The translations under genes and the position numbers were made by a program. Below the pieces are notes generated by a model. That model had not been told where the DNA came from and searched no databases. It was given only the letters and a program-made list of their open reading frames with translations. Of a DNA stretch of 35,185 nt, positions 4,012-29,408 are shown in pieces; positions within the stretch are counted from its first letter, which is position 1, and each line of letters begins with the position of its first letter. Source of the DNA: Candidatus Fraserbacteria bacterium (GTDB lineage Bacteria; Bipolaricaulota; Bipolaricaulia; RBG-16-55-9). The stretch lies in NCBI GenBank assembly GCA_037443265.1, contig JBBIOR010000013.1:12192-47376 (forward strand). The letters are read 5' to 3'.

Positions 4012-5148
4012 ATGCGACTATCAGAGTTCTTCTGCCGGCTGTCAGCTCTGATCGCACTGGCGCTTGTTGTCGCCTGGGCTTGGGCGTTTGTTCCAGAAAT
4101 CTGGGCCCAGAGGCCGGAGGATGTGCCCAACCCTAGGGCATGGAACGCCTGGGTGAGCGATATGGCCAATGTGATTGACGACAAGACGGAGCAAGAGCTC
4201 AATGCCCTGCTCGACTCCCTCAAGCGCCAGACCGGCGCAGAGATCGCTGTGGTCACGATTCGACGCGCGCAAGGCCGCGCACCCAAGGACTTTGCGACCG
4301 AACTGTTCAATCGCTGGCAGATCGGAGAACGCGGGCGAGATAATGGGGTACTGGTCTTGCTCTCGGTGGAGGATCGCCGCATTGAGGTGGAGACCGGCTA
4401 TGGCGTGGAGCCCTTCTTGCCCGATGGCAAAATAGGCGAGATTTTAGATGAGCATGTGCTCCCGCGCTTGCGGCAGGGCGATTATAGTGGAGGTCTTTTA
4501 GCGGGAGTGCGGGCCATGATCGCGGTGCTTCAGGGTGCCAGCTGGGATGGGGATAGGGTGCCCAAAGAGGGGCGAGGATTTCCCTTGGGCACACTGGTGC
4601 TCCTGCTGATTGCGGCAGCCGCAGGCTATGGCCTGTGGCGCTCCAAAAGACGCCTCTGTCCCCAGTGTAATAGGCCCATGCGACGGCTGACAGAAGAGCA
4701 AGACGATGCGTATCTAGAATATGCGCAGAGATTTGAAGAGGAGCTTGGCAGTGTGGACTATCGCGTCTGGCGCTGTGACGATTGCCAGATCAACCACATC
4801 GAGCCCGCGACCCGCTGGTTCAGCGGCTATGAAGAATGCCCGCAGTGTGGCCACCGGACTCTCTCGATAAGATCGTACAGGCTGCGCGAACCCACCTACG
4901 AGCACGCGGGAGTAGAAGAGACCGTCCGCTCGTGTAGCTTCCCCAAATGCCGCTATGAGACTGTCAAGCGGCATCGCATCCCACGCTTGGAGCGTCCTCC
5001 TGTGATCATCGTCCCCGGTAGTGGGGGCTCTTGGAGAGGTTCTTTGGGGTCAGGCGGCTGGCGAGGCGGAGGCCTGGGACTGGGAGGAGGAGGAGGGAGC
5101 TTCGGCGGCGGCCGATCCGGAGGGGGCGGGGCCGGACGCAGCTTCTAA
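4012..5148 (+). CDS. TPM-domain membrane protein with C-terminal Zn ribbons and Gly-rich tail
   Basis: Signal peptide from ATG 4012; TPM core (VSDMANVID, EIAVVTI, LFNRWQIG..GRDNGVLVLLS.EDRRIEVETGYGVE..LPD); TM helix; CPQC, CDDC, CPQC and CSFPKC; tail GGGSFGGGRSGGGGAGRSF. Confidence 0.88.
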   Translation: MRLSEFFCRLSALIALALVVAWAWAFVPEIWAQRPEDVPNPRAWNAWVSDMANVIDDKTEQELNALLDSLKRQTGAEIAVVTIRRAQGRAPKDFATELFNRWQIGERGRDNGVLVLLSVEDRRIEVETGYGVEPFLPDGKIGEILDEHVLPRLRQGDYSGGLLAGVRAMIAVLQGASWDGDRVPKEGRGFPLGTLVLLLIAAAAGYGLWRSKRRLCPQCNRPMRRLTEEQDDAYLEYAQRFEEELGSVDYRVWRCDDCQINHIEPATRWFSGYEECPQCGHRTLSIRSYRLREPTYEHAGVEETVRSCSFPKCRYETVKRHRIPRLERPPVIIVPGSGGSWRGSLGSGGWRGGGLGLGGGGGSFGGGRSGGGGAGRSF

Positions 5149-5154
5149 TCTAAA

Positions 5155-5904
5155 ATGAAGAGAGAGATGACTGACTCCAAGGAGCGCCTATCTCAAGAAG
5201 GCTTCACCGAGGAAGAAGTCGATGCCATTTTGCAGCGGGCGGCAGAGCTGCAAAGCCGGGCCGAGCGGGCTGAGTACCTCTCGCTCTCGCCCGAGGCCTT
5301 AAAGCAGGGAGCCGGGGCCGCGGGTATCCCTGAAGAATTGGTCGAGCAGGCCATCCGCGAGCTTAAGGCCGAGCGCGAGCAGAAGGCCGCTCGCCGCGCG
5401 GCCCGCCAGCACACATGGACCATAGCCGGCATCCTGCTGGGAGGCTTCCTGCTCCTCTCGGCCTTCTACAGCTACGGGGCGCTTAGCAGCCGGCTGGCCG
5501 AAGTGGAGCAAAGACGAGCCCAGTTAGAAAATGTGCTGCAGAGGCGCCAAGACCTGCTACAGAACCTCATGCCGCTGGCCAAAGAATCCGCTTCTAGCGA
5601 GCGCCAACTGTTAGCTTCCATCGAAGGGCTGATCGAGCAATTACAGCAAGCCAAGAGGCTCGAGGAGCGTCAGGCTCTGGAACAGAAGTTGAGCGAAGCG
5701 GCGAGCCGGCTGGGCACGGTTCTTTCCGGATTCCGGGACGAGATCGCCGGAGCAGAGAATCGCATTGCCGTAGAGCGCCAGCGCTACAATGAGGCCGTAG
5801 CTTCCTATAATAGAGCGGCCCGCAGCTTCCCCGTCTCTCTCATCCGGCCGCTTTTGGGATTTCCCGCCCGCTTGCCCTCCTTCCAGCAACCGGAGAGTCG
5901 CTGA
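5155..5904 (+). CDS. atypical LemA-family membrane protein with extra N-terminal helical domain
   Basis: After a TM helix: QLENVLQRRQDLLQNL and EIAGAENRIAVERQRYNEAVASYN...FP..LI..LLGF, both LemA hallmarks. About 85 aa precede the TM. An alternative start lies at 5167. Confidence 0.75.
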   Translation: MKREMTDSKERLSQEGFTEEEVDAILQRAAELQSRAERAEYLSLSPEALKQGAGAAGIPEELVEQAIRELKAEREQKAARRAARQHTWTIAGILLGGFLLLSAFYSYGALSSRLAEVEQRRAQLENVLQRRQDLLQNLMPLAKESASSERQLLASIEGLIEQLQQAKRLEERQALEQKLSEAASRLGTVLSGFRDEIAGAENRIAVERQRYNEAVASYNRAARSFPVSLIRPLLGFPARLPSFQQPESR

Positions 5905-5907
5905 GGC

Positions 5908-6417
5908 TCAAGGTGTCTTCTGCTGAAGGCCCTGCCATAAACATCGCACGTACACGATCTGTCCAGCGTGATAAAGATAATGCTCGATCATCATCTGGAA
6001 GAACTCTTCCAGGGTGCGCTCGCCTCTGCCCTCGGGAGTAGGATATGTGTGAGAAAGCTCTTCGTCTGTCAGAGAATCGAGCGCTTGCCGGAGGGCGCCA
6101 TAGCCCTCCTCGGCCAGCTTAAGGGCCGCTGGAAGATCTCCTCCTTCGGCCGAGAAGCGCGCTTGCAGCTCCTCCCAGCTCAGTCTGCGATGGCCCAGCG
6201 CCTGATCCAGCTGATAGAGACTGTCGCCCCCCACGTGGAAGACGATCTCTAGAATAGACCCTCTCATCCAGGGGAAGCCTTGATAGGCCGGAGGAATCCA
6301 GAGGGCTTCTTCGGGCCGAATGCCCTTGAGAGCGGATTTGAAGGAGTGCCAGCGGCTCTCCTCATAAGCCGACTTAAGAGCTCGCTTCAGCTGCTCGATG
6401 ATGATCTGTGAGGCCAT
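5908..6417 (-). CDS. DinB/YfiT-family (bacillithiol/mycothiol transferase-like) metalloprotein
   Basis: SILEIVFHV and MIEHYLYHAGQI His motifs; 169 aa, helical. Confidence 0.8.
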   Translation of the reverse strand: MASQIIIEQLKRALKSAYEESRWHSFKSALKGIRPEEALWIPPAYQGFPWMRGSILEIVFHVGGDSLYQLDQALGHRRLSWEELQARFSAEGGDLPAALKLAEEGYGALRQALDSLTDEELSHTYPTPEGRGERTLEEFFQMMIEHYLYHAGQIVYVRCLWQGLQQKTP

Positions 6418-22239: not shown

Positions 22240-23676
22240 TTAGGCCCGCAGGGGCTCCTTCTTCTTCGGGTTCAGAATATGAATCGCTTGGCCCATCGCG
22301 GCCTCGGCCGCTTCCATTAGGCCCTCGGGCAGCGTCGGGTGTGGATGGATCGTCATGGCCAGATCCTCCAAGCGCGCCCCCATCTCAATGGCCAGCGCTG
22401 CCTCACTGATGAGATTGCTGGCTTCCGGTCCGATGATCTGCACGCCCAGCACAACGTTTGTCTCTTGATCCGCGATGATCTTGATAAAGCCCTCGGTTTC
22501 ATTCATGCTGATCGCACGCCCCAACGCGGCAAACGGGAATCTTCCGATCAGCGGCGTAAAACCCGCCTTCCGGGCTTCTGCCTCGCTCAGGCCAACATAC
22601 GCAATCTCCGGATCTGTAAAGATCACAGCGGGAACGGTCTGCCAGTCCGCCGCACTGGGCAAGCCGCAGATGGCCTCCGCCGCGACAAGCCCCTCGTGTG
22701 AGGCTTTGTGCGCCAGCATGGGCGGCCCAGCCACATCCCCAATCGCATAGACGTGTGGGTTGCTCGTACGCCTCTGTTCGTCCACTTTCAGAAAGCCCTT
22801 CTCATCGGGCCTAAGACCCAACTTGTCCAGCCCCAAGGGGGTATGGGGCTTGCGCCCCACGCTCACGAGCACTTTCTCGACCTCGAGCTTCTTTGCGCCG
22901 TCGGGTGTTGCAATTACAAGCTGCGCGCCGGACTTGCCCCGCTTAAGCTCTTTCGCTTGAGATTTCACATGAACTTCGAGGCCCGATGCCTGGGCCTTGC
23001 GGGCCACAGGACGTACCAGCTCTGCATCCGTGCCTGGCAAGAGCTGATCTAGCATCTCGACGATCGTCACTCTGCTGCCCAGCTTGGCATAGACCATGCC
23101 CAACTCCAACCCGATGTAGCCCCCACCGATCACTGCGAGCGACTCGGGCAGCCTTTTGAGTCCCAACGCGCCGGTGGAGTCGATCACCGTCTCTCCATCA
23201 ATCTCAAAGCCGGGAATCGTCATCGGGACAGAACCCGTGGCGATTATGCAGTCTTTAAACTCAATGGCCTGTGTGCCGTGTTCGCTCTCAACTAGGCACT
23301 TCTTCGCGGATAGAAAGCTCGCCTTGCCCTGGAGGACATTGACGCCGTTGCCCTCTAAGAGCTGCTTTACGCCCGCCGTGAGCTTTCTGACGACGCTCTC
23401 TTTCCATGCCTGCACCCTCTCCAGCTGGACTTTCACTTCTTTGACGGAGATCCCCATCTCGTCCAGATGCTTGATCTTTTCATATACATACGAGGCATAG
23501 ATGAGGGCCTTCGAGGGGATGCAGCCGACGTTTAGACAGACGCCACCCAGCTCGTCTTTCTCGACCAGCGTGACGTCCTTGCCCAGCTGAGCGGCTCGGA
23601 TGGCAGCCACGTAGCCGCCGGGGCCGGCACCGATGATCAAAACGTCCGTCCCCATCGTGATCTCGCCAACGACCAT
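22240..23676 (-). CDS. lpdA: dihydrolipoyl dehydrogenase (E3)
   Basis: GAGPGGY, redox disulfide GGVCLNVGCIPSK, GGGYIGLE, HPHPTLPE; TGATG coupling to the upstream E1-beta. Confidence 0.96.
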   Translation of the reverse strand: MVVGEITMGTDVLIIGAGPGGYVAAIRAAQLGKDVTLVEKDELGGVCLNVGCIPSKALIYASYVYEKIKHLDEMGISVKEVKVQLERVQAWKESVVRKLTAGVKQLLEGNGVNVLQGKASFLSAKKCLVESEHGTQAIEFKDCIIATGSVPMTIPGFEIDGETVIDSTGALGLKRLPESLAVIGGGYIGLELGMVYAKLGSRVTIVEMLDQLLPGTDAELVRPVARKAQASGLEVHVKSQAKELKRGKSGAQLVIATPDGAKKLEVEKVLVSVGRKPHTPLGLDKLGLRPDEKGFLKVDEQRRTSNPHVYAIGDVAGPPMLAHKASHEGLVAAEAICGLPSAADWQTVPAVIFTDPEIAYVGLSEAEARKAGFTPLIGRFPFAALGRAISMNETEGFIKIIADQETNVVLGVQIIGPEASNLISEAALAIEMGARLEDLAMTIHPHPTLPEGLMEAAEAAMGQAIHILNPKKKEPLRA

Positions 23677-24656
23677 CAAAAACTCACCGCCTGGCGAATC
23701 CCTCTCACCACCCGCCCCACGTCGGGCAGATAATACTCCTCCATGCGCAGATAGGGGATGGCTGCATCAAAGCCTGTGACGCGCACGACGGGGGCCTCTA
23801 GCTGCAGCAGGAGCCTCTCGTTGAGCAGCGCTGTGACCTCTGAAGCGAAGCCGCAGGTGCGTGGGGCCTCCTGCACCACGACTGCCCGGCCCGTCTTCTG
23901 CACCGACTCAGAGATCATCTCGAAGTCTAAGGGCACGAGCGTTCGAAGATCGATGACTTCGACGGAGATGCCGTACTGCTCCTGGGCCTCTTCGGCCGCT
24001 TGGAGCACCGTGCGGGTCATCGAGCCCCAGGCTATGATTGTCACATCTTCGCCGTCGCGTGCCACGCGGGCCTTTCCTAATGGGATCGCGTAGTCTTCCT
24101 CTGGCACCTCCTCGCGAAAAGCCCGATAGATCTTCTTGGGCTCTAAGAAGATCACGGGGTCGGGATCGCGGATGGAGGCAATCAGCAGGCCCTTGGCCTC
24201 ATAAGGGCTCGAAGGGATGACGACTTTAAGACCGGGCGTGTGCGCATAGTACGCCTCCGGGCTCTCAGAGTGATGCTCCAGAGCGCGAATTCCTCCGCCG
24301 TAGGGGGCGCGGATGACCAGGGGCACGTGATAGCGCCCGCGCGAGCGCCAGCGGATGCGGGCCGCATGGGAGACGATCTGATCAAACGCCGGGGGCATGA
24401 AGCCATCAAACTGGATCTCGGCCACGGGTCTCAAGCCATAGACGGCCATCCCAATCGCCGTGCCCACAATCCCGGATTCCGCTAGAGGGGTATCGATCAC
24501 TCGATCCGGCCCGAATTCGTCAAGAAGCCCTTCGGTAGCGCGGAAGACTCCGCCGTCCACACCCACGTCCTCGCCCAGGACTAACACCCGCTCGTCCTGG
24601 CGCATCTCCGTCTTAAGGGCATCGTTGATCGCCTGCACCAGCGTCAGCTGCGCCAT
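23676..24656 (-). CDS. pdhB: 2-oxoacid dehydrogenase E1 beta subunit, copy 2
   Basis: LGEDVGVDGGVFRAT, DTPLAESGI, AEIQF, EHHSESPE, EVIDLRTL; own SD (GGAGG). Confidence 0.93.
   Translation of the reverse strand: MAQLTLVQAINDALKTEMRQDERVLVLGEDVGVDGGVFRATEGLLDEFGPDRVIDTPLAESGIVGTAIGMAVYGLRPVAEIQFDGFMPPAFDQIVSHAARIRWRSRGRYHVPLVIRAPYGGGIRALEHHSESPEAYYAHTPGLKVVIPSSPYEAKGLLIASIRDPDPVIFLEPKKIYRAFREEVPEEDYAIPLGKARVARDGEDVTIIAWGSMTRTVLQAAEEAQEQYGISVEVIDLRTLVPLDFEMISESVQKTGRAVVVQEAPRTCGFASEVTALLNERLLLQLEAPVVRVTGFDAAIPYLRMEEYYLPDVGRVVRGIRQAVSF
24121..24656 (-). repeat. 536-bp direct repeat, copy B (5' part of E1-beta copy 2)
   Basis: No mismatch found against 25119-25654 by eye (offset 998). Identity begins exactly at the ATG. 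Confidence 0.92.
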
Positions 24657-24676
24657 AGTCTTAGATCCTCCACATG

Positions 24677-25654
24677 TCAGAATTGCATAGCTTTTCTGAT
24701 TCCTCGGAGCACCCGGAAGGCGTCCGGCACATAATACTCTTCGAGACGATAGAGCGGAATGGTGGTGTCAAAGCCGCTCACCCGCACCAGAGGAGCTTTC
24801 AGATATAGAAGTGCCTTGTCGTTGACAAGAGCCATGAGCTCCGCTCCGAAGCTGCACGTCAGTGGAGATTCCTGGGCGATCACGCACCGTCCCGTCTTTG
24901 CCACAGACTCGATGACGGTCTCGATGTCTAGGGGAGAGAGCGTGCGCAGATCGATCACTTCAGCATGAATGCCCTCCCGCTCAGCTTGTTCCACGGCCTC
25001 CAGGGAGACGCGCGCCATATATCCCCACGAGATCACGCTGACATCTGAGCCCTCTTTGAGAACTTTCGCCTGGCCGAGAGGCACGACGTAATCGTCTTCA
25101 GGAACTTCTTCTCGGAAGGCCCGATAGATCTTCTTGGGCTCTAAGAAGATCACGGGGTCGGGATCGCGGATGGAGGCAATCAGCAGGCCCTTGGCCTCAT
25201 AAGGGCTCGAAGGGATGACGACTTTAAGACCGGGCGTGTGCGCATAGTACGCCTCCGGGCTCTCAGAGTGATGCTCCAGAGCGCGAATTCCTCCGCCGTA
25301 GGGGGCGCGGATGACCAGGGGCACGTGATAGCGCCCGCGCGAGCGCCAGCGGATGCGGGCCGCATGGGAGACGATCTGATCAAACGCCGGGGGCATGAAG
25401 CCATCAAACTGGATCTCGGCCACGGGTCTCAAGCCATAGACGGCCATCCCAATCGCCGTGCCCACAATCCCGGATTCCGCTAGAGGGGTATCGATCACTC
25501 GATCCGGCCCGAATTCGTCAAGAAGCCCTTCGGTAGCGCGGAAGACTCCGCCGTCCACACCCACGTCCTCGCCCAGGACTAACACCCGCTCGTCCTGGCG
25601 CATCTCCGTCTTAAGGGCATCGTTGATCGCCTGCACCAGCGTCAGCTGCGCCAT
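24677..25654 (-). CDS. pdhB: 2-oxoacid dehydrogenase E1 beta subunit, copy 1
   Basis: Same motifs as copy 2; directly downstream of E1-alpha. Confidence 0.93.
   Translation of the reverse strand: MAQLTLVQAINDALKTEMRQDERVLVLGEDVGVDGGVFRATEGLLDEFGPDRVIDTPLAESGIVGTAIGMAVYGLRPVAEIQFDGFMPPAFDQIVSHAARIRWRSRGRYHVPLVIRAPYGGGIRALEHHSESPEAYYAHTPGLKVVIPSSPYEAKGLLIASIRDPDPVIFLEPKKIYRAFREEVPEDDYVVPLGQAKVLKEGSDVSVISWGYMARVSLEAVEQAEREGIHAEVIDLRTLSPLDIETVIESVAKTGRCVIAQESPLTCSFGAELMALVNDKALLYLKAPLVRVSGFDTTIPLYRLEEYYVPDAFRVLRGIRKAMQF
25119..25654 (-). repeat. 536-bp direct repeat, copy A (5' part of E1-beta copy 1)
   Basis: No mismatch found against 24121-24656 by eye. Confidence 0.92.
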
Positions 25655-25657
25655 GCG

Positions 25658-26806
25658 CTACTCCTCTTGAGTCTCTCTTTGACCCCGCTCTTTCAGATAT
25701 GCTCGTAGCTCTTCCAGTTGCTCTTTCAGATTCCAGGGCATCTCCGCGTAGGTGTATTTGAAGATCTCTTCGACGTCGCGCTCTGGCATCTTCTCGTACT
25801 CCTCCACGGCCTGCGCGACTTCCGCCTTGGCCTCTTCCCAGACGCGCTCTTCATCTTTCTCGTTCCAGAAGTCCCGGCTTTCTAGATATTTGCGGAAGCG
25901 CGGGATGGGATCCTTCTGCTTCCACTCTTCGACTTCCTCCTTGGAGCGATAGCGCGTCCAGTCGTCGGCCGTGGTATGGTGGCTCAGGCGATAGGTGATC
26001 GCCTCGATCATCGTCGGCCCGCCGCCCGAGCGGGCTTTTTCGAGCGCTTCTTTTGTGACCTGATAGACGGCTAAAAGATCGTTGCCGTCGACTTGAACGC
26101 CCTCGAAGCCGTAGGCGATCGCTTTCTGGGCAAGGGTTTCAGAAGCTGTCTGGCGCGTGCGCGGCACAGAGATCGCATATTGGTTGTTCTGGCAGAAGAA
26201 GACCACGGGGCACTGGAAGACGCCGGCAAAATTCATCCCCTCATGGAAGTCCCCTTCGGAGGTGGCGCCGTCGCCGAAGTAGACGATAGAAGCGATGCGA
26301 TCGCCCTTGAGCTTGGCCGCCCAGGCCACGCCCACGGCATGGAGCACTTGAGTGGCAATGGGGATAGAGATCGTAAAGTTGTTGACCCCTTCAGGGATGC
26401 GATTGCCCTCTTCGTTGCCGCCCCAATATGTTAAAATATCCACCCAGCGCTGACCGCGAATCGCTTGGACGGCGTGCTCGCGATACGAAGGGAACATCCA
26501 GTCTTCGGGCTTAAGAGCCCAAGCACTCCCCACCTGAGCGGCCTCTTGCCCTGAGAGCGGAGCGTATGTCCCCAAGCGCCCTTGGCGTTGCAACGCGAGA
26601 GCCCGCTCGTCAAAGACCCGCGCTGTCACCATCCAGCGATACATCTTGCGCAAATCTTCTTTGGAGAGCTCCAGCTCGAGGTCTTCATCAAGCAGCCGGC
26701 CTTCATCGTCCAGGACTTGAACGATGTCCGGGATCGTCCAAGTCCGCCCGCCCTTCCGTTCGATCTTAGCCTTCTCTTTGGCTTTGACCTCGGTGCTCTT
26801 AGCCAT
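25658..26806 (-). CDS. pdhA: 2-oxoacid (pyruvate or branched-chain) dehydrogenase E1 alpha subunit
   Basis: LQRQGRLG, GQEAAQVG, TPP motif GDGATSEGDFHEGMN...NNQYAIS, YRLSHHTTADD. Confidence 0.94.
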   Translation of the reverse strand: MAKSTEVKAKEKAKIERKGGRTWTIPDIVQVLDDEGRLLDEDLELELSKEDLRKMYRWMVTARVFDERALALQRQGRLGTYAPLSGQEAAQVGSAWALKPEDWMFPSYREHAVQAIRGQRWVDILTYWGGNEEGNRIPEGVNNFTISIPIATQVLHAVGVAWAAKLKGDRIASIVYFGDGATSEGDFHEGMNFAGVFQCPVVFFCQNNQYAISVPRTRQTASETLAQKAIAYGFEGVQVDGNDLLAVYQVTKEALEKARSGGGPTMIEAITYRLSHHTTADDWTRYRSKEEVEEWKQKDPIPRFRKYLESRDFWNEKDEERVWEEAKAEVAQAVEEYEKMPERDVEEIFKYTYAEMPWNLKEQLEELRAYLKERGQRETQEE

Positions 26807-27713
26807 TCAATCTTCCTCCTTCTCCCCTGCGAAGCAGATGCGTGATGAACAATTCCCCGGCTCGATAGGAGCTTCTCACCAGCGGGCCGGAGGCCACATA
26901 CAGAAAACCCAGCTCCTCGCCCAGCTGCTTATAGTGCGCGAATTGATCGGGATGGACATACTCTTTCACTTCGATATGCCTCTGGGTGGGTCGCAAATAC
27001 TGCCCGATGGTGAGAATATCTACGCCCACAGCGCGAAGATCCCTCATCGTTTGCAGGACTTCTTCTTCCATCTCGCCCAGCCCCACCATGAGGGCGGATT
27101 TGGTGTAGCGTGTGGGGTCGAGTTCTTTGATGCTCTTAAGCACTTGGAGGGATTGATGATATTTCGCGCGCCGATCGCGCACTTTGGGCGTGAGCCTCTC
27201 GATCGTCTCGATGTTGTGGCCAATCACATCGGGCTTGGCCTCCACCACTTTCTTGAGTGATTCGATGCAGCCTTGAAAATCCGGGATGAGCACTTCTACG
27301 AGCATTTGAGGATGCTGCTCTTTGATGGCCCGCACGGTAGAAGCGAAGTGCCCTGCGCCTCCATCGGGCAGATCATCGCGCGCTACGGACGTGAGTACCA
27401 CGTAGTCCAGGCCCCACTCGCCCAGCAAGCGGGCCACTTTCCAGGGCTCAAGCGGATCGAGCCAGCCGCGGGGATGCCCCGATGTGACGGCACAGAAGCG
27501 GCAGCCGCGCGTACAGACATCGCCCATGAGCATGAGGGTGGCCGTGCCGCCGCCCCAGCATTCATGCATATTGGGGCAGCGAGCTTCTTCGCAGACGGTG
27601 TGCAGATTATATTTTCTCAGGCTCTCTTTGATGCGCTGATACTGCTCCCCGGCGGGGGGTCGGATCTTCAGCCATTCAGGCTTTCGTTGAAGCAGAACTC
27701 CCTCTGTGGGCAC
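26799..27713 (-). CDS. lipA: lipoyl synthase
   Basis: CEEARCPNMHEC (CX4CX5C), CTRGCRFC (radical SAM), RSSY. Probable GTG start at 27713 after an AGGGAGGA SD. Confidence 0.96.
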   Translation of the reverse strand: MPTEGVLLQRKPEWLKIRPPAGEQYQRIKESLRKYNLHTVCEEARCPNMHECWGGGTATLMLMGDVCTRGCRFCAVTSGHPRGWLDPLEPWKVARLLGEWGLDYVVLTSVARDDLPDGGAGHFASTVRAIKEQHPQMLVEVLIPDFQGCIESLKKVVEAKPDVIGHNIETIERLTPKVRDRRAKYHQSLQVLKSIKELDPTRYTKSALMVGLGEMEEEVLQTMRDLRAVGVDILTIGQYLRPTQRHIEVKEYVHPDQFAHYKQLGEELGFLYVASGPLVRSSYRAGELFITHLLRRGEGGRLNG

Positions 27714-27748
27714 GTAGATTCCTCCCTTGTTGGGGTTCGAGCGCACGG

Positions 27749-27778
27749 ATTATAGCTTGTGGGACTTGCGGGGTTCAA
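27749..27778 (-). promoter_or_regulatory. promoter of the lipA-E1-E3 operon
   Basis: TTGAAC-18 bp-TATAAT, overlapping the stop codon of the upstream gene. Confidence 0.65.
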
Positions 27779-28860
27779 ACGGGCTTTTGCTCGATGACGA
27801 TGTACTCGCTCGTGATCTCTCGCACTACGCCGTCGATGCTGGCGTGCAGCGCCACGCTCAAATTTTTAAATTCTTCTATGGGGCCATCGATGGGCTTGGC
27901 GATGAGCTGTCCACGCCGGACGCGATCTCCCACCTGCACGACGGGAATAGAGGGCTTGGCTGCCGGACCGTCCTGATTGAGAAAGAGCCTCACTCTTTTG
28001 ATCTCTCCCCGCACATCGACGAACTCCTTAGGCTTCCAGTTGAGATATTTCGAGAGGCCCAGCTTCTCCATGATCCGGGGCAGAGTGTCTTCCCACGTCG
28101 GAGGCGGCTGGCCCGGCAGGGGCTCAAACGAGACTTGATCCCCCACATACCTCGCTTTGTCCGTGACGAGCAGCCCATTGGTCTTCTTCAAGATGGCGTG
28201 TATTTTCACGTCGGCCAGATCGCCCATCATCGGGCCGCCGTCGATCACCATAAGCTGGTTACTTCTAGAGGTGTTGATCCCCACGCGTGCCAATAGATCG
28301 ATGGTCCAGGCGCCCACCGGCGCACAGAAGACCTGGGCCTGCGCGACTTCTCCGTAGACGTTGACGTATTTGTCCGTCACGGGCTTCTCCTCAAAGAGCG
28401 CCAGATACATGTTGTAGATCGTCTCGACGTTGTTGACAGTGACTCCCACGCTGGAGGGCAGCGCTCTTCCTATCACCTCTCGGCCCGTCACCGCTTTCGT
28501 CAACCAGCGCTCCTCGCCCATCCCATAGACAGAAGGAGTGTAGGCGATCTCAAAACCGTGAGATTTTTTCAAGGGATCGAGCATCTCTTTGTCTTTCTCT
28601 TTCGCTCCGATGACGATGCGCTCGAAGCCAAAGACGCGCTTGAGCGCATCGAACACTTCTTTGATCTGATCAGCATATGTGCTGAGCAGGAGCTTATCGG
28701 CCTCATAGCCGGGCTCCCCCTCCTCACAGTTGACAATCAGAATGGGCGTCGGTCTTAAATATTTGAAGTACGTCGGGAAGCCTGCCCCGCCGGCCCCCAC
28801 CAAGCCCATATCGCGCAAGATGCGCACGACTTCCTTGGGATCTGCAGGAGGGTGCGCCAT
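27775..28860 (-). CDS. PduS/RnfC-like flavoprotein (Complex I 51K FMN domain, SLBB, C-terminal barrel-sandwich hybrid) without Fe-S domain
   Basis: GLVGAGGAGFPT, NCEEGEP, YGMGEE, NNVET, GGPMMG, PVVQVGDRVRRGQLIA...LHASIDGVV; only two Cys in the protein. Confidence 0.8.
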   Translation of the reverse strand: MAHPPADPKEVVRILRDMGLVGAGGAGFPTYFKYLRPTPILIVNCEEGEPGYEADKLLLSTYADQIKEVFDALKRVFGFERIVIGAKEKDKEMLDPLKKSHGFEIAYTPSVYGMGEERWLTKAVTGREVIGRALPSSVGVTVNNVETIYNMYLALFEEKPVTDKYVNVYGEVAQAQVFCAPVGAWTIDLLARVGINTSRSNQLMVIDGGPMMGDLADVKIHAILKKTNGLLVTDKARYVGDQVSFEPLPGQPPPTWEDTLPRIMEKLGLSKYLNWKPKEFVDVRGEIKRVRLFLNQDGPAAKPSIPVVQVGDRVRRGQLIAKPIDGPIEEFKNLSVALHASIDGVVREITSEYIVIEQKPV

Positions 28861-29408
28861 CACTGGCCTCCTCCATCGAGGATCGCCTGGGCCACCGCCA
28901 GGGCTGCCTGATGCAGAGCGTCCAGATCAGCCTTCTCGTCCGTCGGGCCGGAGACCAGCACATAGTAGAGCTTTCTGTCCTTCTGCCAGAGGAGTCCCAC
29001 CAGGCCGGATTCTTGGCTGGCAAAGGCCTGAGCCTTGAGGCCCTCGACGGTCAGCTCGCGGCTCTCTCCCAAAAGCAGGAGGGGCTTGATCTCATCGGCC
29101 GCCTGAGGATCTTTGAGCAAGAATACGGTAATTCCCAGGCTCTCTACGCTCTGGGCAAAGGGTGAGTTAGCGGCCGGCACGAGCGCCGCATGTACGGAGA
29201 AGAGTTCGCCTTCAAAGATCGGGTCCGCTCGATCGATGCGCTCGATCTCAAACCCCTCGATCTGCGGAGGTATAAGCGTCTGCGGCTCCGTTGCAAGTGG
29301 TGGAGTTGCTGTGCCCGACGGCGCTCCGCCTTGCAGGGCGATCAGGGCCACTAGCAAGGCTACGGCCGCTCCGATCAAAATCAGCATCACCCCTGATAGA
29401 TTGGGCAT
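28860..29408 (-). CDS. hypothetical protein with N-terminal membrane anchor/signal
   Basis: Hydrophobic N-terminus and Pro-rich linker; own promoter; TGATG coupling to the downstream flavoprotein. Confidence 0.7.
   Translation of the reverse strand: MPNLSGVMLILIGAAVALLVALIALQGGAPSGTATPPLATEPQTLIPPQIEGFEIERIDRADPIFEGELFSVHAALVPAANSPFAQSVESLGITVFLLKDPQAADEIKPLLLLGESRELTVEGLKAQAFASQESGLVGLLWQKDRKLYYVLVSGPTDEKADLDALHQAALAVAQAILDGGGQ

Follow-up and report, generated by a model that had tools for sequence, protein, structure and literature searches.

Introduction

E1 enzymes of the alpha2beta2 class are symmetric tetramers which act asymmetrically, with one active site working at a time. The tetramer binds one E2 docking domain, and it is the C-terminal domain of E1-beta that forms the binding site for the peripheral subunit-binding domain of E2. 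The closest solved systems to the genes described here are E1p of G. stearothermophilus (1w85, 3duf) and E1b of T. thermophilus (1um9), and for the former H128-beta is given as the catalytic residue in PMC2663715.

The tuf genes are the classic case of prokaryotic concerted evolution. In the cases collected by Wang and Chen (2018, PMC6053082), copies within a genome are likewise closer to each other than to their orthologs over tracts, and this recurs independently. Among the 26 genes listed in that article are tkt and dxs, which belong to the E1 superfamily; a text search of the main text gave no occurrence of 'dehydrogenase' or 'pdh'. Mammalian TLR1/TLR6, according to PMC2077338, are also tandem paralogs with one homogenised and one distinct region, their divergence being held back by partial gene conversion, but constitute a eukaryotic receptor pair, unlike the bacterial E1-beta genes considered here.

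The window, by which we mean the whole stretch of 35,185 nt that was analysed, belongs to a metagenome-assembled genome (MAG) of 44 contigs, G000 in the comparisons below. It holds two E1-beta genes in tandem, an upstream copy U and a downstream copy D, in the following setting:

27775..28863, minus strand: RnfC-like protein, encoded ahead of lipA, with a Complex1_51K domain followed at the C-terminus by a barrel-sandwich hybrid domain
26799..27746, minus strand: lipoyl synthase (lipA), with which the conserved cluster begins
25658..26806, minus strand: E1-alpha (PF00676, E 4e-94; NCBIfam equivalog TIGR03181, 527 bits, above the cut-off of 411)
24677-25654, minus strand: E1-beta copy U, 325 aa (Transket_pyr residues 4-178, Transketolase_C 194-312)
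25119..25654, minus strand: 5' shared block of U, gene nt 1-536
25278..25292, minus strand: loop island of U, gene nt 363-377, codons 121-126, reading G-G-I-R-A-L in the window
24657..24676, minus strand: U-D spacer of 20 nt with GGAGGA, spanned with 0 differences by a contig of the public run X1 (see below)
23676-24656, minus strand: E1-beta copy D, 326 aa (Transket_pyr and Transketolase_C, as in U)
24121..24656, minus strand: 5' shared block of D, gene nt 1-536
24280..24294, minus strand: loop island of D, I-R-A-L, the motif common to all downstream copies
22240..23679, minus strand: dihydrolipoyl dehydrogenase (E3, lpd; TIGR01350, 577 bits against a cut-off of 409)

The ribosome-binding signal of D is a GGAGGA 9 nt before its ATG, that of U a GAGGAG within the end of the E1-alpha gene, ahead of the U ATG. 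The stop codon of D overlaps the lpd start.

Results

In profile searches, U and D match PF02779 (E 1.6e-46) and PF02780 (4.5e-35 and 1.1e-40), while NCBIfam NF006667, with a cut-off of 321, is reached by D with 323.6 bits and narrowly missed by U with 317.9. The best solved relatives of D are 1um9_B, 3duf_B and 1w85_B (E about 1e-119). Both copies align end to end with the beta chains of these enzymes and have the same two beta domains, the catalytic His and the neighbouring alpha and E3 genes in common with them; E1-alpha and E3 both adjoin the beta pair. In the alignment with 1w85_B, H129 of the query corresponds to H128 and L126 to P125, and every one of the 46 listed U and D copies has the equivalent of the catalytic His. 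The window locus differs from the described alpha2beta2 systems in that two unlike betas follow one alpha, in that the copies have unlike loops preceding the His and C-terminal domains that are 40% different, and in that the E2 gene lies outside the cluster: the single E2 (414 aa; PF00364, PF02817, PF00198) is found on another contig, beside a third beta. Overall, U and D are ordinary E1-beta genes in a conserved two-beta arrangement with domain-limited gene conversion.

Over the first 536 nt from the ATG, U and D show 0 differences (25119-25654 versus 24121-24656), and the sequences 5' of the two ATGs are unrelated. The block ends at the final residue of the Pfam pyrimidine-binding domain. 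From there the change is abrupt: the third position differs in every one of the codons 179-188, and the 146 codons aligned past the block are 61% identical in nucleotides and 59.6% in amino acids, with one 1-aa indel. A first-pass annotation of this DNA had described a block of this length without mismatch, starting at the ATG, two intact reading frames with their own initiation signals and diverged 3' halves with a 1-aa indel, all of which is true of the window sequence. Chance identity is excluded, since the 5' halves of U and D in the three closest genera are only 76-79% identical.

To assess the tandem independently, the window was compared with Logan contigs of X1, the single public run holding the locus (0.97 of sampled words). 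It should be noted that these are contigs and not raw reads, that contigs drop variants and that the MAG was not necessarily assembled from X1. Three copy-specific X1 pieces show 0 differences from the window. A 522-nt contig (24627-25148) bridges the start of D, the spacer and the 3' half of U, again with 0 differences. The shared block is represented by one 532-nt contig with a depth of 37.7, compared to 16.4 and 14.2 for its flanks (2.3-2.7 times). As the contig from the U 3' half enters the block by 30 nt, the branch point lies at 25118/25119, and this boundary and the one at 24120/24121 are both backed by X1 contigs. The tandem arrangement is real and no chimera.

The first-pass annotation had seen an assembly artefact as the main alternative, and this concern is borne out in part, in that a short island is probably collapsed. 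That the whole block is artefactual, either because the true 5' halves are about 77% alike or because two strains were joined into a chimeric tandem, is extremely improbable, even for a MAG of 44 contigs in which at least one small island looks collapsed. The independent contigs hold the block as a single piece at k=31 with about twice the flank depth, so the copies are not about 20% diverged; sequences 20% apart have almost no common 31-mers and cannot collapse. The 522-nt contig bridges the two copies, and a chimera of strains would have to contend with the recurrence of the tandem in 24 of 40 relatives.

The 532-nt piece deviates from the window in six letters, clustered at 24280-24294 (gene nt 363-377), and at the U junction at 25651 (gene nt 4) an alternative letter has a depth of 11.5, compared to 4 for the letter of the window. 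The coverage check that had been proposed returned about twice the flanking depth for the shared block, with deviations at the six letters and nt 4, as far as contigs report them. The X1 contigs do not assign either version of the island to one copy, and the six letters fit either U or D. Two further sources were rejected as evidence on the locus: X2 and X3, other runs of the same study, yielded merely short fragments, 90-95% alike, from other organisms, and a 169-nt X1 contig at 25282-25315, considered as the missing island version, has loose ends encoding a GLYHSQ-type loop, which on our reading assigns it to a third-paralog-like gene of another organism.

The six letters change the loop motif from IRAL to IHAP, which is the upstream-type motif. 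Residue 126, three residues ahead of the catalytic His, is the sole alignment column separating upstream (Pro) from downstream copies (Leu) over 23 pairs. Pro126 is found in 22 of the 23 upstream copies, the only exception being the U of the window, and in a survey of tandem loci the first copy has Pro and the second Leu in 19/19. This universally diagnostic residue sits in the catalytic half, which speaks against a functional difference confined to the docking half. Since the six letters restore the U-type motif and the window's U is the sole exception at this position, the perfect 5' identity, which holds for the letters of the window, is probably not a property of the real genome. It would be the artefact of a popped bubble, the real identity being near 529/536, and the real U copy probably reads I-H-A-P, unlike the I-R-A-L of the window.

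Exact tracts in relatives end at the same island (nt 371 in G025, 373 in G032 and 362 in G029). G008, whose partial upstream copy was examined separately and outside the trees, has differences between U and D within the island, at nt 371, 372, 375 and 377, and just five further differing sites over nt 244-536. These observations bear on the alternative that the real genome does have 536 identical nucleotides in both copies and the six-letter and nt-4 variants come from a co-occurring strain. Contigs cannot phase variants, and the two forms of the U junction (depths 11.5 and 4) do indicate some heterogeneity of the population. Such a strain would, however, have to differ solely inside the repeat, since none of the three copy-specific contigs deviates from the window at any letter, and its variant would have to rebuild exactly the motif marking the upstream copies in 22/22 other pairs, at an island which G008 also keeps. 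We thus regard a second strain as quite unlikely and continue with a collapsed island as the preferred reading. Metagenome assemblers can erase the few bases distinguishing near-identical paralogs, and the bases probably lost here encode the one residue that defines both paralog types.

Of 40 relatives, 24 have the tandem beta pair; they belong to four families of the order, and the gene order in pair-bearing relatives is always lipA-E1alpha-beta-beta'-lpd. Among 78 loci surveyed, 19 have two betas and 59 have one; the titles of all 19 name Bipolaricaulota, Acetothermia, Fraserbacteria or 'uncultured Thermotogae'. An RnfC-like gene lies upstream in 8 of these 19 tandem loci. The trees were built without G008 and G024, in both of which the upstream copy is partial; that of G024 had been read out of frame, and the half-gene identities obtained for this genome were discounted. 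In these trees, the C-terminal halves group across genomes as upstream-type and downstream-type. In agreement with this, the C-terminal half of U has a nucleotide identity of 0.72 to the upstream copy of G001 versus 0.605 to the downstream copy, and that of D is 0.72-0.74 identical to relatives' downstream copies versus 0.60-0.62 to upstream ones. When the 59 single-beta outgroups are included, 35 of 38 tandem copies and one single-beta Bipolaricaulota locus form a clade of 36 rows, supported by an SH-aLRT of 93 (not starred); the three others, which come from L068 and L069 (family f4), lie just outside without resolved position.

This clustering of tandem copies in the presence of outgroups is the reason to prefer a duplication within Bipolaricaulota as the origin of the pair, and to regard the acquisition of D by horizontal transfer from an L-type beta of another phylum as the less likely origin. 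The old duplication suggested in the first-pass annotation is thereby corroborated by the distribution of the pair, the orthologous C-terminal halves and the joint clade. Its suggestion of 3' halves under diversification fared less well: ortholog dN/dS is 0.01-0.15 in both copies and both halves, indicating purifying selection, and within this range the 3' halves have 0.06-0.15 for both copies. A product of recombination between the repeats had also been predicted, in the form of one remaining beta gene whose 3' half is of D type. One relative (L044/G002) has this form, for which collapse in assembly is an equally possible cause.

The shared block of G000 is only 0.75-0.81 identical to U and D of G001, G005 and G006, compared to 0/536 differences between its own two copies. 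Longest-run permutation tests on the 5' half gave p <= 2e-4 in G012, G025, G029 and G032 and p 0.003-0.004 in G027 and G020. Over nt 223-304, G012, G025, G029 and G032 show 0 differences within each genome, compared to 12-19/82 between genomes, and by this pattern the exact tracts of the four species arose independently. Since every relative compared is itself a MAG, slight over-smoothing may affect the exact tracts there too. The 5' halves of G001, G005, G006, G022 and G023, on the other hand, have dS of at least 1.2 or saturated and no long exact tract; as read from these rates, their higher 5' similarity is one of protein level, from purifying selection. Across the genomes compared, the pattern is that of episodic and not continuous conversion, absent or old in most species, and the 5' block of G000 is best explained by recent gene conversion. 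The proposed homogenisation of the catalytic half thus applies as a recent event in G000 and not as an ongoing process, and within-genome 5' identity, where it had been suggested to look for it, is seen as exact tracts in four species and is down to 76-79% in the sister genera.

Separate trees of the 5' and 3' halves, likewise proposed at that stage, do differ in topology. AU tests on the half-gene proteins gave p = 0.269, 0.178 and 0.614 and reject no alternative topology; we therefore claim recent tracts only and not concerted evolution at family level. The donor copy is not nameable, because the block is a mosaic: over 35 sites diagnostic in G001 and G006, 17 are U-type, 14 D-type and 4 neither, and with G005 added just 8 such sites are left. 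A shared block that is the consensus of two slightly different copies is conceivable next to the recent conversion that we favour.

Discussion

We propose a model which, taken as a whole, we consider likely to be the best explanation, combining an old pair, a recent 5' conversion, a collapsed island and co-assembling products. Old tandem paralogs U and D would have been kept in the cluster lipA-E1alpha-betaU-betaD-lpd, with D occupying the place where other lineages have E2. The gene part for the pyrimidine-binding (catalytic) domain would recently have been homogenised by non-reciprocal recombination between direct repeats 998 bp apart, in a tract that presumably starts where homology starts, at about the ATG, and halts at the domain boundary, where 61% nucleotide identity could not support further heteroduplex. 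A 15-nt island inside the tract would still differ between the real copies (His124/Pro126 in U, Arg124/Leu126 in D), bubble popping having left both MAG copies with the version of D. The products of U and D would share one E1-alpha and most likely co-assemble into an alpha2-betaU-betaD E1 with two unlike active-site loops and an E2-docking surface whose halves would differ as well.

The gene content bears on this last step. No second E2 gene was found in any of the 6 genomes searched, each having one E2, which lends no support to the earlier suggestion of docking to different E2 partners. The three g10 genomes (G012, G022, G023) have one true E1-alpha and one E2 in 3/3, and at another place one additional protein (336-338 aa) with a Transket_pyr domain. 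In some genera the only such genes found are the two betas with one alpha and one E2. A heteromeric alpha2-beta-beta' E1, as had been suggested, is a plausible candidate.

Alternatively, U and D could remain unmixed, forming separate alpha2-U2 and alpha2-D2 enzymes with a common E1-alpha and differing in substrate or docking. Among 59 single-beta loci of other phyla, residue 126 is P in 31, L in 19, A in 5, G in 3 and F in 1; each of the Pro126 and Leu126 loops thus occurs alone in single-beta operons and can presumably work as a homodimer, and the C-terminal halves of the pair are 40% different in amino acids. The cluster, however, has one alpha gene per two beta genes, the g10 genomes have a single true E1-alpha and a single E2, and near-identical catalytic domains would pose no obvious barrier to mixed assembly. 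We consider unmixed enzymes a possibility of some weight, albeit a doubtful one.

Returning to the mixed enzyme, its furthest-reaching form, in which an order of Bipolaricaulota builds an asymmetric alpha2-betaU-betaD E1 and selection has kept this asymmetry throughout the order's history, is tentative and, in our estimation, rather unlikely. If true, one active site would have a Pro126 loop and the other a Leu126 loop, two different C-terminal domains would make up the docking surface for E2 on the two-fold axis, and selection would repeatedly have stopped conversion at the 15-nt island and at the domain boundary. Half-of-the-sites behaviour, which in symmetric E1 is only dynamic, would then be hard-wired. 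Two distinct betas per single alpha offer a natural system for testing the use of built-in asymmetry.

In comparison with the cases of PMC6053082, conversion here is limited to one domain, skips an active-site island and is absent or old in most species. The locus would be a clear case, from a bacterium, of gene conversion that is limited to one domain and has within its tract an island protected by selection. Literature searches on Bipolaricaulota/Acetothermia pyruvate or 2-oxoacid dehydrogenase found no description of a two-beta cluster, so the arrangement appears unreported in the literature searched. As a further candidate component, the RnfC-like protein encoded ahead of lipA may be a member of the E1 system.

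Tandem E1-beta genes share a near-identical catalytic half

In the window, an upstream (U) and a downstream (D) E1-beta gene are arranged head to tail:

24677-25654, minus strand: U, E1-beta, 325 aa, intact
23676-24656, minus strand: D, E1-beta, 326 aa, intact

All testable defining features of the E1-beta family are present in U and D, which are ordinary members of it, and each is preceded by a separate Shine-Dalgarno-like signal. In the window sequence, no difference was observed over the first 536 nt counted from the ATG (the block), and the DNA 5' of the two ATGs is unrelated. Past the block the step is abrupt: the third position is mismatched in every codon from 179 to 188, and identity is 61% at the nucleotide and 59.6% at the amino acid level over 146 aligned codons, with one 1-aa indel. 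Since the catalytic Transket_pyr domain (N half) comprises residues 4-178 in both proteins, the block stops where the first domain stops; Transketolase_C (C half) follows from residue 194.

Support from reads was taken from Logan contigs (k=31) rather than raw reads of a single public subsurface metagenome run, X1, which contains 0.97 of the sampled words of the window and may be the source of the metagenome-assembled genome (MAG) itself; depths are per-contig means. A 17.6-kb contig (depth 16.4) leads from lpd into the D 3' half and ends 30 nt within the block, while a 522-nt contig (depth 14.2) connects the first 30 nt of D via the spacer to the U 3' half and ends 30 nt within the other block, both with 0 differences to the window. 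The block itself is represented by one 532-nt contig of depth 37.7, about twice that of its flanks. Since two sequences differing by 20% would stay separate at k=31, a merging of 5' halves diverged by about 20% is ruled out; the halves are truly near-identical and the tandem is no chimera of two strains, the outcome that would have undone the first-pass annotation. However, the 532-nt contig differs from the window in six letters at 24280-24294 (gene nt 363-377). The perfect 536-bp identity including synonymous sites holds for the window sequence, but is probably in part an assembly product. By arithmetic, the 3% of sampled words absent from X1 is about what these letters, counted in two copies, would explain.

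At window position 25651 (gene nt 4 of U), the alpha/U junction occurs in two X1 versions, with depth 11.5 for the other letter (Pro2) and 4 for the window's letter (Ala2); the D junction shows the window's letter alone. Where the shared block ends may vary within the population.

An active-site island probably distinguishes the copies

The six letters lie in the active-site loop (codons 121-126, the island) and change codon 124 from Arg to His and codon 126 from Leu to Pro, converting I-R-A-L to I-H-A-P. Across 23 aligned U/D pairs, the sole column dividing upstream from downstream copies is residue 126, with Leu in 23/23 D copies and Pro in 22/23 U copies, the only exception being the window's own U. 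Tandem loci fetched by name carry Pro in the first and Leu in the second copy in 19/19 cases, mostly from the same species as the search of 40 relatives, so that they do not count as independent. Most simply, the HAP-type island would belong to the real U and the RAL-type island to the real D; each assembler would have popped the bubble and retained one version, D's in both copies of the MAG and U's in Logan. That the island separates copies rather than strains is, judged from these sequences, very probable. G008, a relative in the same family but another genus, displays the proposed state directly, the island being kept between otherwise near-identical halves: over nt 244-536, differences between its U and D are confined to nt 371, 372, 375 and 377 (H-A-P vs R-A-L) and five further sites. 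Its contig ends within U, where a near-exact repeat would be expected to break it.

Residue 126 aligns to Pro125 in the beta chain of G. stearothermophilus, which lies three residues ahead of H128-beta. PMC2663715 describes H128-beta as electrostatic catalyst and proton donor, and also describes half-of-the-sites reactivity, asymmetry of the loops and a proton wire proposed to link the two sites. Among 59 single-beta loci elsewhere, 31 have Pro at residue 126, 19 have Leu and 9 have another residue. As a single-beta operon may have either loop type, each is presumably competent alone.

An old, conserved pair

Searched with D (E <= 1e-60), 30 of 41 genomes including the window's own gave a match. 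Two adjacent copies are present in 24/40 relatives across four families of the order, all compared genomes being MAGs and the relatives being kin rather than independent; named ones are titled Candidatus Bipolaricaulota, Acetothermia or Fraserbacteria. Among 78 loci examined, 19 have two betas, in the order lipA, alpha, beta, beta, lpd as far as the contig reaches and the gene was recovered. The other 59 have one beta (56 from other phyla), followed in most by E2, so that D takes the place of E2. One tandem locus (L042) leaves room for E1-alpha at 4892-6020, where no alpha match with at least 50% query coverage was found and a frameshifted or diverged gene may lie. The beta genes are usually about 15-30 nt apart, compared to about 390-630 nt in three relatives:

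L045, 2820-3212: wide beta-beta spacer
L055, 5082-5715: wide beta-beta spacer
G024 contig C23, 1770-2403: wide beta-beta spacer

Both in the tree and in nucleotide identities, C halves cluster across genomes as upstream-type and downstream-type. A tree that adds the 59 single-beta sequences as outgroups places 18 D copies, 17 U copies and the lone beta of L044 together in a clade (SH-aLRT 93, not starred), and the three copies of L068 and L069 in this tree branch just outside, without resolution. This 36-member clade speaks for a single duplication within the lineage rather than uptake of a foreign beta. Both halves of U and D are under purifying selection (ortholog dN/dS 0.01-0.06 for the N half, 0.06-0.15 for the C half). 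The old duplication proposed in the first-pass annotation is supported by adjacent pairs in relatives and orthologous C halves. Separate trees of the two halves do not support a stronger claim of deep, family-level conversion: C halves split into U and D, but AU tests on either half rejected no alternative grouping (p = 0.269, 0.178, 0.614).

Probable gene conversion in episodes

Leaving out the window's own pair, nucleotide identity between U and D over 22 complete pairs is 69-91% in the N half and 60-69% in the C half. For the closest genera (G001, G005, G006), N-half identity is 76-79%, the longest exact runs measure 17-33 nt and dS is about 1.2-1.4. Nothing recent occurred there, and their higher N-half similarity is mostly protein-level. 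In other species, the longest exact tracts reach 355 nt (G025), 169 nt (G032), 140 nt (G029) and 101 nt (G012). A permutation test on exact runs, using polymorphic N-half sites alone, yielded p <= 2e-4 for these four, 0.003 for G027, 0.004 for G020 and 0.016-0.05 for G001, G005, G021 and G033; the twelve remaining pairs were not significant. Over nt 223-304, the four species show 0 differences within but 12-19/82 between genomes, pointing to separate, recent conversion events. Conversion at the E1-beta pair is episodic: the suggested homogenisation of the catalytic half is borne out by tracts in some species, but is not ongoing in the closest genera. Tracts end at the island (nt 371 in G025, 373 in G032, 362 in G029), and in G032 a second exact stretch lies beyond it (nt 436-539). 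The window's block combines U-type with D-type states in a mosaic, which leaves the donor copy unnamed.

From the sequence pattern and its recurrence we infer the following process. RecA-type recombination between the direct repeats, 998 bp apart, would be followed by non-reciprocal repair, with tracts bounded on one side by the ATG, where homology begins, and on the other by the fall to 61% identity at the domain boundary. The island, with 6 mismatches in 15 nt, could be kept either by selection against conversions replacing it or by the mismatch-dense patch being repaired back. Unequal crossing-over between blocks would leave a single chimeric beta with a D-type 3' half, deleting the C-terminal half of the first copy as previously predicted. 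The locus of G002 from the same family (L044 / L015; lipA, alpha, a lone beta with Leu126 and a C half of D type, lpd) matches that form, although an assembly that left out the loop would give the same picture.

Gene conversion between paralogs is a well-known mechanism. In the literature, we found no description of a conserved two-beta, E2-less Bipolaricaulota cluster, or of conversion in it that is confined to one domain and spares an active-site island; in the available main text of a prokaryote-wide survey (PMC6053082), the word 'dehydrogenase' is absent.

Genomic context and possible assembly of the enzyme

The minus-strand gene order is RnfC-like gene, lipA, E1-alpha, U, D, lpd, with no E2 gene within the window's lipA to lpd cluster. 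The genome (a MAG of 1.69 Mb in 44 contigs, 88% complete) has one E2 with lipoyl, subunit-binding and catalytic domains on another contig (C10, L003), beside a third beta 63% identical to U. No alpha adjoins this pair, upstream of which an HD-domain gene is located instead, and a second E1-alpha is isolated on contig C29 (L010) between an NYN-domain gene and thiE; the subunits of a second E1 are thus scattered. The third beta carries a BCKDH-like loop, K-G-G-L-Y-H-S-Q.

In the 1w85 work, the site where the E2 subunit-binding domain docks is reportedly formed by the C-terminal domains of the two betas. Binding of the subunit-binding domain to the alpha2beta2 tetramer is stated in PMC2663715. 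Docking of U and D to different E2 partners, also considered initially, is unsupported, since each of six genomes searched has one E2 and a second was found in none. Three genomes of the genus g10 (90-96% complete) contain one true alpha, U, D and one E2; the same search added one Transket_pyr protein of 336-338 aa without a beta match at E <= 1e-60. In these three genomes, the U/D pair serves the sole complex of its kind. Judged from gene content, mixed alpha2-U-D tetramers would be the likeliest state, at somewhat short of an even chance; separate U2 and D2 enzymes rank next and would be somewhat less likely.

Two further genes precede lipA:

27775-28863, minus strand: RnfC-like protein, 362 aa, directly upstream of lipA
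28860-29408, minus strand: ORF, 182 aa, upstream of the RnfC-like gene with a 4-nt overlap

The RnfC-like protein begins with a Complex1_51K domain and carries an RnfC 'barrel sandwich hybrid' domain (lipoyl-like fold) at the C-terminus, its match to the rnfC model being limited to positions 119-356 of 435; its gene is found upstream of lipA in 8/19 tandem loci. The 182-aa ORF, for which no Pfam or NCBIfam family was matched, has a hydrophobic N-terminus.
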